This document shows, piece by piece, positions 8,781-16,449 of a DNA stretch of 64,000 bases. This DNA is from Escherichia coli (GTDB lineage: Bacteria; Pseudomonadota; Gammaproteobacteria; Enterobacterales; Enterobacteriaceae): assembly GCF_016903815.1 (NCBI RefSeq), contig NZ_CP069973.1, one strand, 5' to 3'. The notes below the pieces were generated by a model. The model ran no database searches and was not told where the DNA came from. It saw nothing but the letters and a program-made list of their open reading frames with translations. Positions within the stretch are counted from its first letter, which is position 1; every line of letters begins with the position of its first letter. The position numbers were made by a program, and so were the translations under genes.

Positions 8781-10225
8781 TATGGTCTTCCTATTAATTT
8801 ACTGTGGGATACAGCATTGATGTCATCTACAACCATCTGGAATGTCGGTTGGCGTCCTTCAAAGCGTGCGCGTTCCGCAACGTAATCGTGGTGGAGGTCG
8901 AGAATATCTTTTGGCAATGGAACGGCTCCGGCTTCCAGTACGCGTATCGCGCCGGTGTTGTCACGGACCGGAAGAATTTTGCCCGCGTTACACGCGGCTG
9001 GTGCAAATGGCACATCCAGTACGCCCGCTTCAAATGCCAGCACCGTACCGCGCGCAATATCACCATTACCCAGTTCGAACACTTTATTCAGTACCGCGCG
9101 AACCTCGCTCTTAATCAGTTCAATTTCCAGTTCAACCGCAGGGCACGGCGGGAATTTCTGCTCATTGACCATGTTGAGCATCTGGCGGGAGGCTTTCAGC
9201 CCCTGAATGTTGGCAGCGGCAGTCGGGATTCCCCAGGCTTCGTGAGGGCTTTTGGTGATGACTTTGGTGGCACCAGACATCCCCGCGACGGCTGCACCCC
9301 AGGAGATAATGGCGAACGCTTTCGATTCGTCTTCCGGAAAGCCGCCCATCCACTGGTGAAATACGGTACTTAATTCATAGTCGGTATAGCCATAGTTCTG
9401 AAAGTATTCGTGTGCAAGTTCACGCAGAGACTGGATCGCCGCGACATCCTGCGTCAGGCTGCCGACCTGTCCATAACCAACGGTGATAGATTTCACACCC
9501 TGTTCCAGCGCCAGTAATCCTTCGATTATCGCGATAGAGTGCGAGATAAACGGCGGGATCAGCGTACCCGTTAGTGGGCCAAATGGTTCGCGGTTGATGC
9601 GGATCCCGTGTTCTTCATACATCCCCATTAAACGGTCGCAGTACTGCCAGTCGCGGATCGATTTTTCCAGCGTTACGCGCTTGGCATACGGAATATTGTA
9701 GGAAATGCCGCCGCCTTCATAACTGGTAAAGCCGCTGGCCATCGAGATTTCAGCCAGCAGACGCGCATCTGGCGTGCCGTGGCGGATCTGTAGCGGTTTT
9801 TGCAGAGTTTCGGTGAGGCGACGGCAAGCTGCGACGCCGTGGTTAACGACCGGTAAACCGTTCAGTTTAGAGGTTCCGGCTTCGATGGATTTTTTAATCC
9901 CTACAGCAGCTTCTTCGTACCGATTCAGACGGGTATATGCATCGATGGTGCTCGGCAGCAGATCGCACTCTTCTTGTAGTGTTTTCAGTAGTTCGATGTG
10001 TTCGTCCATCAGCGCCACGCCTGCGCGCGGTTGGCTAAGAGTTTTACCTTCCTTGTCTGCTTTCAGCAGGGCAAGAGAGAAGCGTTTATGCTCAGGAATG
10101 GTTTGTTGGTATTTAACGCCATCTTCAAAGTTTTCAACATCCTTGCCGGTTTCCCAGGTTTTCAATACCTGTTGCCGCTCGGTCATGAATTCGTTATGGG
10201 TTAATTTCTTATTTCGAAGTTCCAT
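8780..10225 (-). CDS. Glutamate mutase epsilon (large catalytic) subunit, MutE/GlmE
   Basis: 481 aa, TIM-barrel large subunit length; operon context with the S and L components. Confidence 0.85.
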   Translation of the reverse strand: MELRNKKLTHNEFMTERQQVLKTWETGKDVENFEDGVKYQQTIPEHKRFSLALLKADKEGKTLSQPRAGVALMDEHIELLKTLQEECDLLPSTIDAYTRLNRYEEAAVGIKKSIEAGTSKLNGLPVVNHGVAACRRLTETLQKPLQIRHGTPDARLLAEISMASGFTSYEGGGISYNIPYAKRVTLEKSIRDWQYCDRLMGMYEEHGIRINREPFGPLTGTLIPPFISHSIAIIEGLLALEQGVKSITVGYGQVGSLTQDVAAIQSLRELAHEYFQNYGYTDYELSTVFHQWMGGFPEDESKAFAIISWGAAVAGMSGATKVITKSPHEAWGIPTAAANIQGLKASRQMLNMVNEQKFPPCPAVELEIELIKSEVRAVLNKVFELGNGDIARGTVLAFEAGVLDVPFAPAACNAGKILPVRDNTGAIRVLEAGAVPLPKDILDLHHDYVAERARFEGRQPTFQMVVDDINAVSHSKLIGRP

Positions 10226-10243: not shown

Positions 10244-11632
10244 TTATAGGGTTAAGCATTGAATACTGGTGCGCGCGGCGGCCAGTGGATCGACTCTGGC
10301 GACGTTTGCCAGCAGTGGTAATAGCCCCCGGGAATCGCGGTAATATTCAAATTCGGTCGGTAAGAGAATGCGTTTACCGTCGTCGTTTAACTCGCGGTAT
10401 TTCAACCAGTGATGCATATCGAACTGACTGGCACGCGAGAGCCATCCGCCGGAACCCACGACTTTACGCACGGTTGTCAGGTCACGTCCCATCTGTAAAT
10501 CGACATTGCCGACGCAGGTGCAGACCTCTTTTTTGGTGCCCGCATGTCTTTCGGTGGCATAACCCACACACAGTCCGGCCAGGACGGTATCGAAATATTT
10601 TTCTTCTGCATTCGCGGGTAAGTAGTCGGGATGAGCGACTAGATGACGGAGGTAATGATAAAAAGCGTCCAGCTGTGCGGGTTGCTGAGCAAAATTCACA
10701 TTGACTAACTCTTTCGCACTTTCACCAACCACCATTGCCGAGACGCGCATTCCCAGATCGCCTTCCACCGTCCGTTTCACGAAGGGTTCCGGTACGCCAT
10801 GTAAAACAGTGTCGGGCGAGAGCGTGTTGGCACAGGCTGAATAGACATCGGTGGTTGCGCCGCCCATGTCGATCAGCATGAACTCCTTCCAGCTGTGATC
10901 GACGTTACTGATTGCCTTAACCAGTTCAAAGACCGTCCATGGTGTCGGCATTGGTTCTTCGCCTGTTTTATCAACAATGACATCCAGCCCTTTCCCTTTA
11001 ACGATGCGTTTAAGGAATATGTCGCAGATAGCCTGGCGTGCAGCTAAAGGGTTCGGATGGTCAAGATCGGGCAGAACGTTGTCGACGATGGTCAGGTCTT
11101 TATGCCCTAGGATCTCCTGCACCTCGTCCTGAATATCCCGGTTTCCGGCATAAATAATGGCGCAGTCGAGTTTGGATTCTGCCAGCACACGGGCGTTATT
11201 CAGGCCGTAGCTTTCTTCTCCGCCGTCGGTGCCGCCGGTGAACAAGAGAATATCGGGCTGCGTTTCTTCCAGTGCCTGGATATCACGGCGGTTCAGCTTG
11301 TAGGCGTAATATTGCGCAATTTTAGCCCCCGCAGAGTGAGCGGTTACTTTCGCGGTTTCCAGGGTGATAGAAGGCACCAATCCCATTGCGGCAACCGCCA
11401 GCCCACCTTTGGCAGAGGAGGAATACTTCAATGTAACCTCACCGCTGTTAAACAGGGGGAGGGCATTATCTACGTTTAACACCAGGTTCAGGCTGGAGAA
11501 AAACCCCTTCGCCAGATGATGGGTGGTGGTTGGGGTCAGTACGTGGTTAACCAACGTTAACGCGTCCCCCTCCCGGGCGAAGAGGGCTGCTTTGGTCCAC
11601 GTCGAACCAATATCGACAGAGACGATTTGCAT
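10244..11632 (-). CDS. Glutamate mutase L component (MutL/GlmL, reactivating chaperone-like ATPase)
   Basis: 462 aa ORF between the S and E subunits, the typical glmS-glmL-glmE order; ASKHA-like N-terminus ([18 protein letters not shown]). Confidence 0.8.
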   Translation of the reverse strand: MQIVSVDIGSTWTKAALFAREGDALTLVNHVLTPTTTHHLAKGFFSSLNLVLNVDNALPLFNSGEVTLKYSSSAKGGLAVAAMGLVPSITLETAKVTAHSAGAKIAQYYAYKLNRRDIQALEETQPDILLFTGGTDGGEESYGLNNARVLAESKLDCAIIYAGNRDIQDEVQEILGHKDLTIVDNVLPDLDHPNPLAARQAICDIFLKRIVKGKGLDVIVDKTGEEPMPTPWTVFELVKAISNVDHSWKEFMLIDMGGATTDVYSACANTLSPDTVLHGVPEPFVKRTVEGDLGMRVSAMVVGESAKELVNVNFAQQPAQLDAFYHYLRHLVAHPDYLPANAEEKYFDTVLAGLCVGYATERHAGTKKEVCTCVGNVDLQMGRDLTTVRKVVGSGGWLSRASQFDMHHWLKYRELNDDGKRILLPTEFEYYRDSRGLLPLLANVARVDPLAAARTSIQCLTL

Positions 11633-12081
11633 CAGATTGCCTCTTCAAGAATGCGAGTATCAACGTTATGACGTTGGTTGATATCGTGGGCCATCAGCTG
11701 ACAAACATCTTCTAAGTCATGACTTGGGGAAAAGACGCGATCAAATCCCATCTCTTTGAACTTGGTTTCCACGTCAGCGAAGTCATGTTTTCCGACCACC
11801 AGGTTACCGCCCACATAGAGCAGGATGTTACCCAGCCCACGCTCGATGCAGCGTTCGCGCATGCCCAGACAATCGATATCGCCATGCCCATAGATAGAGG
11901 AGACGACAATCGCGTCAGCACCAGTTTCAATGGCAGCATCAATATATTCGTCCTGGCTGACCATTACGCCCAGATTAATAACTCTGAAGTCATGGTTGCT
12001 AAAAACGCGGTCCAGAACTTTATTGCCTACTGCATGGCAGTCCGCGCCAATAACGCCAATCACAAGTGTTGCTTTCTTCAT
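11632..12081 (-). CDS. Glutamate mutase sigma (B12-binding) subunit, MutS/GlmS
   Basis: ORF 11632-12144; cobalamin-binding DxHxxG motif ([11 protein letters not shown]). Start trimmed to ATG 12081 ([12 protein letters not shown]), preceded by AAGGA, giving 149 aa. Confidence 0.8.
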
Positions 12082-12627
12082 GGGTAATCCTTTGTAAGAC
12101 AGAGAGTAAAATAAGTTACACACGTCGTATTTATGGCCGCTCATAACGGCACAGGTTTAATATCACAGGAGTGTCTTTATCTGACCGTAATGTTGCAATT
12201 GATCTATTTTCAAAATGTCTTTCGGGAAATGATTGTTTAAAGTGTGTTTTCAAATTCTCATTTTAATTCAGTGTGTTATGTCAACTAATGTCATGAATGT
12301 TAAATTTTTAAAATTAACTTGATTTGATGTATTGAGATAATTGTGATCAACTTCTAATTTGCATTTTTGTGACGTGGCTTTAGCCATGAGTAAATGCATT
12401 TCATAAAAGTTAAGTCGAATTTCACTGCAATTCATCTCTGCTTAATGTAAAAATAATGTTGAAAATAACAAATAATTAATGATTCATGCGAATTATGACC
12501 TTTGTTAGCTCTTTTGATTTTTCGTAAAAAAGAAAAGTACATGAAGGTGCTACCAGTACGAGTAACGTTAATCAAAAGTTTTATTACGTCTGGCAATAAC
12601 GCAGGCCATTTTCGCGACTGGGTGGAT

Positions 12628-13050
12628 TTAATCAGTATAATCCTCATACAATAGGTCAGGATTTACTGAACCGTTAACGGGGATTTGGTGTTGAAATTTA
12701 GAAATGGCGGAGTCAATTAATGAAGACAATATCGGAAAAATGACAGTGTCAGAATTAATTTCAATTAATCCTTCTCGTTGTTGACCAAAAAAGATATTTA
12801 TCTTGATTTCATTTGTACTACGGCAATCAATATGCAGTAATTTTTGATCGCTGAGATTTTCTGTTTCATAAATGTTTTTGGCGATAGTCGGATGTATTGA
12901 TGCCAGACATCTGCTCAGATAAGCCAGATCCTTTAGGGAACACCCCGCTGAGTAGAGGATGTCAGAGAATTTTTGTGTGTCAACTGTTGTCTCTGAAGCG
13001 TATGTTGCATTGACAGGAAGGGTGTTGAAAGAGATTTGAGATGGGATCAT
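12628..13050 (-). CDS. Hypothetical protein, no recognisable family (orphan, AT-rich)
   Basis: 140 aa ORF in a strongly AT-rich block, co-directional with and 80 bp downstream of the 314-aa ORF; no motif I can assign. Confidence 0.5.
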   Translation of the reverse strand: MIPSQISFNTLPVNATYASETTVDTQKFSDILYSAGCSLKDLAYLSRCLASIHPTIAKNIYETENLSDQKLLHIDCRSTNEIKINIFFGQQREGLIEINSDTVIFPILSSLIDSAISKFQHQIPVNGSVNPDLLYEDYTD

Positions 13051-13130
13051 TATTTAAATCTTTCCGTGAGTAATAAAAATTAATCCCCGGGCATTGTTTG
13101 GCAATATTTGCCACAGGGAATATATAAAAA

Positions 13131-14075
13131 TTAAAGTATTTGATTGGCATCGGTTAACTGATCAATAACCAGTGCCAGATTGGTAAACATTTTGAAAAAG
13201 CGATACTGGCTCGGAATATCTCTTTCAAAGACGAAACATTCAATGTCATTGTTTGAAAAATAAAGGACTAGTGTTGCTGATTCGTCAGGAAAAATATGGA
13301 AATATATCTGGTTACCAGAAGGAGGATAGTCCAGAAGAAGGGTATCTTTGCCCGTCACATACCTGTTGTGGTCGTGGATGCTGCGCTCACACTTCATCAG
13401 AGGTGTCATGATACTCATGTATTCATCTGATGTTAATATATTAAAATCACCATCCATTTTAAAGAAACGATAAAGTAACAGTACATCCTCTTGCGTAACC
13501 GGTTCGTTTGTTTTTAGAGGGAAATAAGTGGGAACCAGAAGATGAGGTTCTAATCTATTTTGTTGAGCGCTATAACTAAATTTGAACATAAATTCCGGAT
13601 CGCTCATCAATTGAGCGACATAATTATGCCTGGCTTCAAAAATTTTAACTTTTATCAGGTTAAATAAGTCTGTTTCGTCATCCTGTATTAAAAGACATTG
13701 ACCATAGCAGCCAGGCTTTTTTTCATTATAAGCAGAAACGGTTATTCTGTCAGGAGTGTCAACGTTATATCCAAAAGCCAGATAGTGACCTTCCTCATCG
13801 AGATTTGTTTCCAGGTTATTTAAATTCATCACATGAAGTGTTTGCAATGCTGATTCAATGAGCTGTTGACTCTCTGAGGTAAATGTTTCGCGCTGCGTTG
13901 TATAAAGTGTATCGATTCCAACGACTATCCGATGTGGATCAAGGATGGCGGCAATCATCTTTATTACCTGCACAGTCATGGGTGATGTCATTGATTCTTT
14001 ATCTGTTTTTAGAGGATCATTAGATGGCCAACCTGAGAAGCGATTGACAGCAGAACTGATATTATCAGGACTCAT
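13131..14075 (-). CDS. Hypothetical protein, no recognisable family (orphan, AT-rich)
   Basis: 314 aa ORF, uninterrupted, in AT-rich DNA between the glutamate operon and the cydA regulatory region; codon usage atypical for the E. coli core. Confidence 0.55.
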   Translation of the reverse strand: MSPDNISSAVNRFSGWPSNDPLKTDKESMTSPMTVQVIKMIAAILDPHRIVVGIDTLYTTQRETFTSESQQLIESALQTLHVMNLNNLETNLDEEGHYLAFGYNVDTPDRITVSAYNEKKPGCYGQCLLIQDDETDLFNLIKVKIFEARHNYVAQLMSDPEFMFKFSYSAQQNRLEPHLLVPTYFPLKTNEPVTQEDVLLLYRFFKMDGDFNILTSDEYMSIMTPLMKCERSIHDHNRYVTGKDTLLLDYPPSGNQIYFHIFPDESATLVLYFSNNDIECFVFERDIPSQYRFFKMFTNLALVIDQLTDANQIL

Positions 14076-14880
14076 AGCAGCAACCTCATTGTAATCAAGC
14101 GAGGCGCTGAGCGTACTCGGCTATAGAAAAACTAACTTGCAAAAATCGCTCATTTTTCATTTATCAGGCGAAAGTGGTCTCTGTTCACTCAGAAACAATC
14201 ACTCCCGCTAAGTCATACCTGTTTCATCGATACATTTAAGTGATTATTACTAATGAAACAATAACATAACGGGCTTACGGCCGGTGCTCATAAAGGCAAC
14301 AATCAATTAACTTTGATAAAAATATGTTATGTAAAATAGCAACAAATTGGCTAATCTAATCAATTGGTATTATAAAAAGTGGATAGGGCGGTTCTGTTAA
14401 ATAAAACACTGGTTTTTTATCTATACCTTTTCATTGTAATAATTGTGTTGCATAAATATTTCACAATAAATTAACAATAAAATCACCAATGATCTATGGT
14501 TTATACATAATTAACATATTTGGTTGGTTTTGATATAAATCAATTTTTAATTCTTGAAAAAAATCTGCAAAACACGATAAATTGTCGTAGATCAAATTGG
14601 TGAGATCGTGACAATTTCGCTATAAATTGATCACTGTCGAAAAATGCAAATTTGCTCAATAAAAACCTGTTTATTGTAAGGATTTTGCGGCGTAATATAA
14701 TTACGGGATCAATTTGGTTTATTCATTAACATATTTGTAACTTTTTTATCATTGTCTTTTCCTCTTTTGATGAAATGGCAACGATAGAGGCGAGCAAATA
14801 ATTTTGTATTGGGGCATGCGTGTGACCCTTTCTAACGGGGTTCACTCTCGGAGTCTTCATGCGATGAGCAAGGAGTCATG
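14076..14880 (+). promoter_or_regulatory. Long AT-rich cydA upstream control region (multiple promoters, ArcA/FNR/H-NS regulated in K-12)
   Basis: About 800 bp non-coding AT-rich DNA directly upstream of cydA, as expected for the cydAB control region; individual sites not resolved by eye. Confidence 0.6.
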
Positions 14881-16449
14881 ATGTTAGATATAGTCGAACT
14901 GTCGCGCTTACAGTTTGCCTTGACCGCGATGTACCACTTCCTTTTTGTGCCACTGACGCTCGGTATGGCGTTCCTGCTGGCCATTATGGAAACGGTCTAC
15001 GTCCTTTCCGGCAAACAGATTTATAAAGATATGACCAAGTTCTGGGGCAAGTTGTTTGGTATCAACTTCGCTCTGGGTGTGGCTACCGGTCTGACTATGG
15101 AGTTCCAGTTCGGGACTAACTGGTCTTACTATTCCCACTATGTAGGGGATATCTTCGGTGCGCCGCTGGCAATCGAAGGTCTAATGGCCTTCTTCCTCGA
15201 ATCCACCTTTGTAGGTCTGTTCTTCTTCGGTTGGGATCGTCTGGGTAAAGTTCAGCATATGTGTGTCACTTGGCTGGTGGCGCTCGGTTCAAACCTGTCC
15301 GCACTGTGGATTCTGGTTGCGAACGGCTGGATGCAAAACCCAATCGCGTCCGATTTCAACTTTGAAACTATGCGTATGGAGATGGTGAGCTTCTCCGAGC
15401 TGGTGCTTAACCCGGTTGCTCAGGTGAAATTCGTTCACACTGTAGCGTCTGGTTATGTGACTGGCGCGATGTTCATCCTCGGTATCAGCGCATGGTATAT
15501 GCTGAAAGGTCGTGACTTCGCCTTCGCTAAACGCTCCTTTGCTATCGCTGCCAGCTTCGGTATGGCTGCCGTTCTGTCTGTTATTGTTCTGGGTGATGAA
15601 TCTGGTTACGAAATGGGCGACGTGCAGAAAACCAAACTGGCTGCTATTGAAGCCGAGTGGGAAACGCAACCTGCGCCTGCTGCCTTTACTCTGTTCGGCA
15701 TTCCTGATCAGGAAGAGGAGACGAACAAATTTGCGATCCAGATCCCTTACGCGCTGGGCATCATTGCAACGCGTTCCGTGGATACTCCAGTTATCGGCCT
15801 GAAAGAACTGATGGTGCAGCATGAAGAACGCATTCGTAACGGGATGAAGGCGTACTCTCTGCTCGAACAACTGCGTTCTGGTTCTACCGACCAGGCGGTT
15901 CGTGACCAGTTCAATAGCATGAAGAAAGACCTCGGTTACGGTCTGCTGCTGAAACGCTATACGCCAAACGTGGCTGATGCGACTGAAGCGCAGATTCAAC
16001 AGGCAACCAAAGACTCCATTCCGCGTGTAGCGCCGCTGTACTTCGCGTTCCGTATCATGGTGGCGTGTGGCTTCCTGCTGCTGGCAATCATCGCGCTCTC
16101 TTTCTGGAGTGTCATCCGCAACCGCATTGGCGAGAAAAAATGGCTGCTGCGCGCCGCGCTGTACGGTATTCCGCTGCCGTGGATTGCTGTAGAAGCGGGC
16201 TGGTTCGTGGCTGAATATGGCCGCCAACCGTGGGCTATCGGTGAAGTGCTGCCGACAGCTGTGGCGAACTCGTCACTGACCGCAGGCGATCTCATCTTCT
16301 CAATGGTGCTGATTTGCGGCCTGTATACCCTGTTCCTGGTGGCAGAATTGTTCTTAATGTTCAAGTTTGCACGCCTCGGCCCAAGCAGCCTGAAAACCGG
16401 TCGCTATCACTTTGAGCAGTCTTCCACGACTACTCAGCCGGCACGCTAA
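14881..16449 (+). CDS. cydA: Cytochrome bd-I ubiquinol oxidase subunit I
   Basis: Translation [28 protein letters not shown]... matches CydA; ORF track starts one Met earlier (14878). Confidence 0.97.

Follow-up and report, generated by a model that had tools for sequence, protein, structure and literature searches.

Introduction

In Escherichia coli K-12, the cydAB operon is preceded by a regulatory region with five promoters, two FNR sites, three ArcA regions and H-NS, according to Cotter (1997) and Govantes (2000) as they are cited in later papers (PMC3798270; PMC3688515; PMC3946193; PMC3037301). This region lies downstream of mngB, the upstream neighbour of cydA in K-12, as a preliminary description of the DNA studied here had it, and fills an 846-bp spacer that has been flagged for H-NS, multiple RNA polymerase peaks and five promoters (PMC3946193) and for which H-NS and multiple promoters are also reported elsewhere (PMC3037301). 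ArcA sites were located by chromatin immunoprecipitation sequencing at −152 (cydA3), −418/−407 (cydA2) and −590 (cydA1), the last being the strongest at cyd (PMC3798270, Tables S2–S4); ArcA is described as relieving H-NS at cydAB (PMC3798270), and one FNR site lies at −53.5 of promoter P1 (PMC3688515). Here we analyse the corresponding spacer in another E. coli strain, within a stretch of 64,000 nucleotides (contig NZ_CP069973.1, assembly GCF_016903815.1) that is called the window below. In the window, the 805-bp spacer (14076–14880) separates cydA from a divergent minus-strand gene for a hypothetical protein of 314 amino acids (aa), beyond which lies a second gene of this kind; the two are referred to as the orphan genes.

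Other described systems also bear on this locus. Switched intergenic regions, a form of horizontal regulatory transfer reported by Oren et al. (2014) in the description given by Thorpe et al. (2018) (PMC5890482), concern core genes with alternative upstream sequences. A methylaspartate gene cluster for glutamate fermentation, including the mesaconase FumD, has been described in E. coli O157:H7 (Kronen and Berg, 2015; PMC4682846), and AT-rich, lineage-specific genes silenced by H-NS are a feature of enterobacteria. Comparison with these systems indicates that the spacer very probably contains a complete but diverged cydAB control module, which would be expected to work as it does in K-12, and that the orphan cassette stops just outside this module.

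The control region of cydAB occurs as diverged alleles

Similarity of the spacer to that of K-12 was detectable only in the cydA-proximal ~376 bp, at ~80% identity, and the BLAST match stopped at 14505. Counted from the cydA ATG, identity was 47.5% at −134 to −75, 88% at −259 to −135 and 71% at −375 to −260, and beyond −376 it fell to 34–48%, which is background; at about −75 it jumps sharply, from 50% to 99%, a possible hint of recombinational replacement. The preliminary description had called the control region conserved, which holds for its last 75 bp (98.7% identity to K-12 at −74 to −1) but not further out, where identity is 47.5–88% and then that of background. The same description had expected K-12 homology to end inside the interval, and alignment to the mngB–cydA spacer bears this out (~14505): homology does not extend unchanged, and on this point the suggestion of a disturbed control region survived.

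What the fading of similarity means was judged from 5,426 complete genomes of E. coli. Approximately 3,180 of these carry a spacer of the K-12 type, 1,138 carry the full 805-bp interval of the window (1,135 of them together with glmS/glmL), and ~1,107 carry a third type, class B, in which a TPR-protein gene stands upstream of cydA and no trace of the orphans was found by tblastn. The class B sequence matches the window from 14240 to cydA and nothing to the left of it; identity is 87–100% in most segments, ~63% in 14431–14504 and ~80% over the distal half. The distal half of the window type is thereby present, in window-type and class B genomes together, in 2,245 of the 5,426, and the control sequence of this type (14240–14880) is also shared by a non-coli Escherichia, locus L006. 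Since 14240–14504 is shared with the orphan-less class B, the point at ~14505 where K-12 similarity fades is no insertion junction, and the comparison identifies 14240–14504 as the outer half of another cyd control allele rather than as an insert. The preliminary suggestion that the insertion point alters upstream cyd elements finds no support in this sharing, and the same comparison places the true boundary of the orphan module at ~14240 (−641 from the ATG), ~55 bp outside the outermost ArcA box. The outermost motif that can be aligned across genera (~14240–14262) falls in the same place as the class A/B junction; thus, the orphan module reaches just to the margin of the conserved control module.

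Judged from these alignments, the cyd control region in E. coli exists as at least three alleles (K-12, window and class B), which travel with different cassettes in the hotspot between sucD and cydA. The core promoter (−360 to −136) is 78.9% identical between window and K-12, and each of the two is 78–82% identical to Citrobacter and Enterobacter; the distal halves of window and K-12 share 41% identity, whereas the cydA coding sequences of the two alleles are 98.98% identical. A hypervariable spacer in the long P1 leader (14746–14805, plus strand) is 47.5–50% identical to K-12 and 39–67% to other genera. In L006, where cydA is 94.3% identical to that of the window and 23.6% of its synonymous sites differ, the first orphan gene is followed by 804 bp and then cydA; this interval is 85.9% identical to that of the window over the aligned stretch (86–99% in most segments, 50–66% in two short patches). 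The locus therefore resembles a switched intergenic region: a single core gene, cydA, 99% identical between alleles, has upstream alternatives that are below 90% identity or non-alignable within the species (79% in the core, 41% in the distal part) and are linked to different neighbours. It differs in having, as its alternatives, diverged orthologues that share one predicted site layout and not unrelated sequences. On this evidence, the difference from K-12 reflects allelic divergence of the control region and not damage by the cassette.

Predicted regulator sites of the control module

The window-type control module (14240–14880, 641 bp, plus strand) would be orthologous to the K-12 mngB–cydA spacer as a deeply diverged allele. 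It can be aligned across genera, with islands of conservation at regulator sites: when several genera are aligned, the conserved positions cluster at the ArcA half-sites, the FNR boxes, the P1 hexamers and a site at 14674–14701. A scan of species genomes for CydA gave, among the matches listed, no locus from Escherichia or Salmonella.

ArcA boxes were predicted with a position weight matrix built from 111 boxes (PMC3798270, Table S3), from which the three cydA boxes were excluded, at a threshold of 13 bits. Seven boxes in the interval reached this threshold, against 0.29 in dinucleotide shuffles (none of 500 shuffles reached seven). Two distal boxes (14296–14330; −585 and −568; 14.0 and 17.3 bits) align with K-12 cydA1 (−590), and a middle cluster (14434–14517; −447, −421, −410 and −381; 14.0, 20.7, 14.7 and 16.2 bits) is the positional equivalent of cydA2 (−418/−407), its ACA/TTAACA/TCAC cores being invariant across 11 genomes of eight genera. 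The proximal box (14726–14743, minus strand; −155; 20.0–20.5 bits) is equivalent to cydA3 (−152); of 12 outgroup species scanned, eight have such a box between −151 and −156. The constant 3-bp offset from the K-12 positions is due to a 3-bp indel in the spacer at −134 to −75. Citrobacter, Enterobacter and Kluyvera share this layout of three clusters; at 13 bits, Lelliottia shows just those at −420 and −155.

The first FNR box (TTGATATAAATCAA, 14530–14543) is a perfect TTGAT-N4-ATCAA that is kept in all genera aligned, and the second (TTGTCGTAGATCAA, 14582–14595), likewise conserved across genera, overlaps the predicted promoter P1 (14554–14595, plus strand), for which a promoter scan gave TTGAAA at 14554–14559 as the −35 and TAAATT at 14578–14583 as the −10 hexamer. 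The boxes lie 52 bp apart, centre to centre, with the P1 hexamers between them. In K-12, the second FNR site is reportedly at −1.5 of P1; the spacing in the window fits sites at −53.5 and −1.5, which would place the P1 start near 14590. A second promoter-like site, TTGTAA-16-TATAAT (14674–14701, plus strand), matches 10 of 12 consensus positions and is nearly invariant across genera; as a guess, it could be the downstream promoter P5.

The GC content is 26–27% over 14250–14700 and 34–40% at the edges of the spacer, compared with ~52% in the flanking genes. The module would thus keep the extreme AT-richness that makes the K-12 region a target of H-NS. One 9/10 match to the H-NS motif TCGATAAATT lies at 14574–14583; this motif is not enriched in the window, with seven matches against five expected.

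Taken as a whole, the region shares with its K-12 counterpart the downstream operon, P1 with FNR boxes 52 bp apart, the distances of the ArcA sites, AT-richness and the 75-bp leader. It differs in being only ~80% identical over the proximal 376 bp and non-alignable by BLAST beyond, in its ArcA scores, and in its left neighbour, which in K-12 is the 3′ end of mngB with repeats resembling repetitive extragenic palindromic elements and here is a divergent orphan gene. Both FNR boxes, the P1 hexamers and the three ArcA clusters all have positional equivalents in the window, a further result against the proposed alteration of upstream elements; since these elements known from K-12 are kept inside 14240–14880, the orphan module would abut the control module without cutting into it. 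With P1 predicted to be flanked by the two FNR boxes and with putative ArcA clusters at about −155, −420 and −570/−585, the module may be expected to behave by analogy with K-12, that is, to be silenced by H-NS, relieved by phosphorylated ArcA at low oxygen and repressed by FNR under anoxia.

The cydA leader

The leader (14806–14880, plus strand) is near-invariant, with 98.7–100% identity in K-12, L006 and two Citrobacter species. Two hairpins were noticed in it. The arms of hairpin 1 (14822–14829 and 14838–14845) stay complementary in 11 genera although their sequence varies: 84% of cells are paired, five of eight pairs have changed on both sides, G–U pairs are present, and covariation is 0.461 against 0.251 in shuffles (none of 500 as high) and at most 0.30 in slid controls. 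In hairpin 2 (14848–14881), TCTT pairs with the Shine–Dalgarno AGGA, and the first ATG is paired as well; this hairpin is invariant, so covariation cannot test it. Neither leader hairpin belongs to an Rfam family. In Salmonella, CsrA activates cydABX translation 3.5-fold (PMC6347204). By analogy, the hairpins may relate to this activation, CsrA opening the predicted hairpin 2.

Two in-frame ATGs, at 14878 and 14881, are available to cydA, which is annotated in RefSeq at 14881–16449 on the plus strand. At the first of these positions, Enterobacter cloacae has ATA, and Citrobacter freundii and Shimwellia have AAG; this favours 14881 as the true start. Within the control module, an open reading frame (ORF) of 31 aa (14379–14474) was rejected as a gene, since class B has GTC in place of its GTG start.

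The orphan side of the spacer and the orphan genes

The remainder of the spacer (14076–14239) would belong to the orphan side. Position 14076 is the first base upstream of the start codon of orphan gene 1 (13131–14075, minus strand), and orphan gene 2 (12628–13050, minus strand; 140 aa, annotated as hypothetical) has the same orientation; these coordinates confirm that the AT-rich orphans adjoin the cyd control region and are divergent from cydA, as first described. A conserved block of 110 bp (14076–14185, minus strand) carries a Shine–Dalgarno GAGG at 14084–14087 and ~100 nucleotides of presumed 5′ untranslated region or promoter. This block is 86% identical in L006 and 94.5% in L009, a further locus compared, which exceeds the identity of the orphan protein itself (65% and 90%, respectively). 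Between it and the control module lies a hypervariable seam of 54 bp (14186–14239), with 50% identity to L006 and 67% to L009, both of them orphan-bearing alleles.

The preliminary description had regarded an independent, separable promoter of the orphans as a point that would speak against a regulatory link with cyd, and the outcome is divided: consensus and relaxed scans predicted no conserved sigma-70 candidate for the orphans, but the 110-bp block stands conserved beside the start codon. A TTGCA motif was considered as part of a sigma-54 promoter and rejected by eye, the upstream (−24) element having no GG. The block gave no signal of structure in folds of both strands (z-scores of 0.04 and −0.55), and an Rfam scan of 11900–15000 at E ≤ 1 gave no match.

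When 5.8 billion proteins were searched by indexed words, homologues of orphan 1 came up only in Escherichia, as five clusters; from 1.84 billion representatives, a full HMMER scan returned only fragments of orphan 1 itself. Its variants at 99%, 90% and 65% identity are all exactly 314 aa long. The ratio of nonsynonymous to synonymous divergence (dN/dS) is 0.34–0.41 for orphan 1, with dS up to 0.53, and 0.27 for orphan 2 against an allele of 90% identity; by these measures, the orphans appear to be real protein-coding genes that evolve fast under weak purifying constraint. The dS of orphan 1 to L006 (0.53) is about twice that of the adjacent cydA (0.28), and it is 0.145 between two E. coli alleles. 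Judged by dS, the orphan alleles are unusually old or fast-mutating.

No significant Pfam or PADLOC match was obtained for either orphan. Orphan 1 had no phage match and only three “plasmid” matches, in PLSDB (CP088669.1, NZ_CP141089.1 and NZ_CP134663.1; 0.73–4.9 Mb); because of their size, these records are probably chromosomal sequences filed as plasmids. An AlphaFold2 model of orphan 1 from a four-sequence alignment was unusable, with a predicted local distance difference test score of 47. A literature search by locus tag (ECs0766/67 and Z0898/99) gave nothing relevant, and the supplements on small genes of O157:H7 Sakai have no entry for them.

The sucD–cydA hotspot and the glutamate-fermentation island

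The window is E. coli chromosomal DNA with 100% identity to many sequenced strains. Downstream of the spacer, the order is cydABX-ybgE-ybgC-tolQRAB-pal. On the left, mngB lies ~15 kb further away (mngRAB is outside the window), and the glutamate-fermentation (methylaspartate) island and the two orphans stand in between. In O157:H7 Sakai, the equivalents are ECs0766 (140 aa), ECs0767 (314 aa) and ECs0768 (cydA).

Among the matches listed, most Enterobacterales have the cyd control region immediately after sucD, and some genera have mngB next to it. The cassettes seen between sucD and cydA (loci L002, L004, L005, L006, L011–L047 and L091) comprise nothing, mngRAB, the glutamate-fermentation island, the TPR-protein gene, a gene for a 258-aa protein and the orphan pair; Sakai has the island without mngRAB, and the window strain has both. 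The order in L006 is sucD, the 258-aa gene, a remnant of orphan 2, orphan 1, 804 bp and cydA, with neither the glm island nor mngRAB. The adjacency of orphan and cydA without the glm island implies that it is older than, and separable from, the glutamate island. In the same locus (8945–9906), all that is left of orphan 2 is a remnant (52% identity by tblastn over 31 aa) beside an orphan 1 that is intact at 314 aa; hence, the orphans are no obligatory pair.

The island to the left of the orphans is the same as the described O157:H7 cluster (homologues of ECs0755–ECs0764), sharing the genes for a LysR regulator, cobO, fumD, a transporter, DUF4387 and AtuA-family proteins, mal, glmE, glmL and glmS. 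By contrast, the orphans are outside the described pathway, are absent from the Citrobacter and Pseudescherichia versions, and occur without the cluster in another Escherichia. A short conserved element ~115–170 bp upstream of glmS (12195–12250) forms the left limit of the orphan module. It is 79–97% identical over 30–56 bp to DNA upstream of glmS in four or five Citrobacter species, Pseudescherichia vulneris and “Escherichia sp.” ESNIH1, and 74% identical over 86 bp in one Citrobacter; all of these relatives are without orphans. It is probably part of the control region of the glm operon, as its promoter or operator, perhaps for the LysR regulator of the island. Because the element is shared with genera that have no orphans, the orphan module is bracketed at ~12280–14239, where the pair would form an Escherichia-restricted, fast-evolving, AT-rich cassette between the glm and cyd control regions. 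The longest glmS ORF (11632–12144, 170 aa) exceeds the RefSeq annotation, which gives 149 aa from 12081, by 21 codons; the extension is mostly unsupported, similarity to outgroups reaching only ~35 bp beyond 12081, to ~12116.

No integrase, transposase or tRNA lies between glmS and cydA, as would mark a mobile island, and a search for flanking repeats around the orphan module gave only pairs at chance level. A 24-nucleotide inverted repeat (75% complementary; 12215–12238 and 14193–14216) was seen at both junctions of the module. It is probably a chance occurrence, since the same 2.4 kb contain 14 other similar pairs.

The orphans have much in common with the H-NS-silenced, AT-rich, lineage-specific genes of enterobacteria, namely 34–39% GC, homologues in a single genus, fast evolution and a position in a variable hotspot. 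They differ from such genes in having no mobility gene, tRNA or flanking repeat, in being under some purifying selection and in being of sufficient age to be shared by two Escherichia species. An accessory orphan pair beside the cydAB control region is real but ordinary in kind, and a switched intergenic region beside a hotspot of accessory genes is a known kind of variation.

Alternative explanations

Several observations weigh against a complete control module that works as in K-12. The case for regulator function of the window allele is drawn from the sequence of its sites, and of the five K-12 promoters, P1 and, as a guess, P5 have counterparts in it. Compared with K-12, the distal ArcA boxes score lower (14.0 and 17.3 against 19.9 bits) and lie partly on the other strand, while the middle and proximal boxes score higher (20.7 and 20.0 against 13.0 and 14.7 bits). 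In addition, an AT-rich tract of 2.7 kb, with 26–40% GC continuously over 12150–14800, compares with ~0.65 kb in K-12 and could change the load of H-NS. Given box scores that differ between alleles and an AT tract four times longer, quantitative differences in regulation are plausible.

It is tempting to speculate that the two sides of the spacer are coupled, H-NS coating the whole tract from the orphans to cyd and phosphorylated ArcA loosening it at the distal sites, ~220–250 bp from the orphan start codon, so that the orphans are de-repressed together with cydAB at low oxygen. Such cross-talk, which we consider possible but rather unlikely, would supplement the presence of an intact control module and not replace it. 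It would fit the unbroken low GC of the tract, the H-NS binding and ArcA anti-repression documented for the K-12 region, the failure to predict an autonomous sigma-70 promoter for the orphan, and the retention, in a second Escherichia whose left side differs, of both the orphan–cydA adjacency and the spacer length (804 against 805 bp). On the other hand, the conserved adjacency could be plain inheritance, the hypervariable seam at 14186–14239 is hardly a shared element, and in Sakai a cold shift moved the genes in opposite directions, ECs0766 up by a log2 of 1.05 and cydA down by 1.49 (PMC4057180, supplement). Transcriptional read-through from the cyd region into the orphans, which had also been proposed, fails on orientation: the cyd promoters fire away from the orphans, so that such read-through cannot reach them.

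An import of the window-type control region from a Citrobacter-like donor, together with the glutamate island and by recombination in the flanking core genes, seems improbable. Several Citrobacter species and P. vulneris do carry a divergent glmS beside cydA in the same position, without orphans (in P. vulneris with a spacer of 848 bp), and the proximal ~380 bp of the window are closer to Citrobacter (84–86%) than to K-12 (81.5%). However, the same type of allele occurs in class B and L006, both without the glm island, its distal half is only 44–56% identical to Citrobacter with a single 38-bp match, and all E. coli alleles have nearly the same leader and cydA; the K-12 allele, moreover, is equally far from every outgroup, which makes the direction of any transfer unreadable.

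That the orphan insertion displaced or cut short the outer part of the cyd control region, with loss of K-12 upstream elements, and thereby rewired cydAB is very improbable. K-12 similarity does end at ~14505 with background identity upstream, and the non-alignable part includes the strongest K-12 ArcA site and presumably P2–P4. However, that part (14240–14504) is present in the ~1,107 orphan-less genomes, its predicted ArcA boxes stand where K-12 has them, its site cores can be aligned with those of other genera, and it lies entirely inside the real junction at ~14240, so that class B and the outgroups largely refute such a replacement.

Implications for the regulation of cytochrome bd-I

In the gut and in infected tissue, growth at low oxygen requires cytochrome bd-I, and, to our knowledge, nearly everything that is known of how this cytochrome is regulated comes from K-12. 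In ~41% of complete E. coli genomes, O157:H7 included, the outer half of the control region cannot be aligned with that of K-12; several of the orphan-less class B genomes sampled are human urinary isolates. The probably complete, diverged control module described here removes the concern that the neighbouring orphan genes, which are uncharacterised genes confined to Escherichia, broke the cydAB switch. A bolder and doubtful extension, distinctly less secure than the module itself, would be that three ancient alleles, alike in site layout but not in site strength and each tied to its own cassette, give lineage-specific curves of response to oxygen, and that the ArcA/H-NS switch could also turn on the orphans; a core respiratory promoter would then have been captured as a bidirectional switch for new genes. 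Because the predicted site layout is preserved, the K-12 model of cydAB regulation probably transfers to these strains in kind, though perhaps not in degree.

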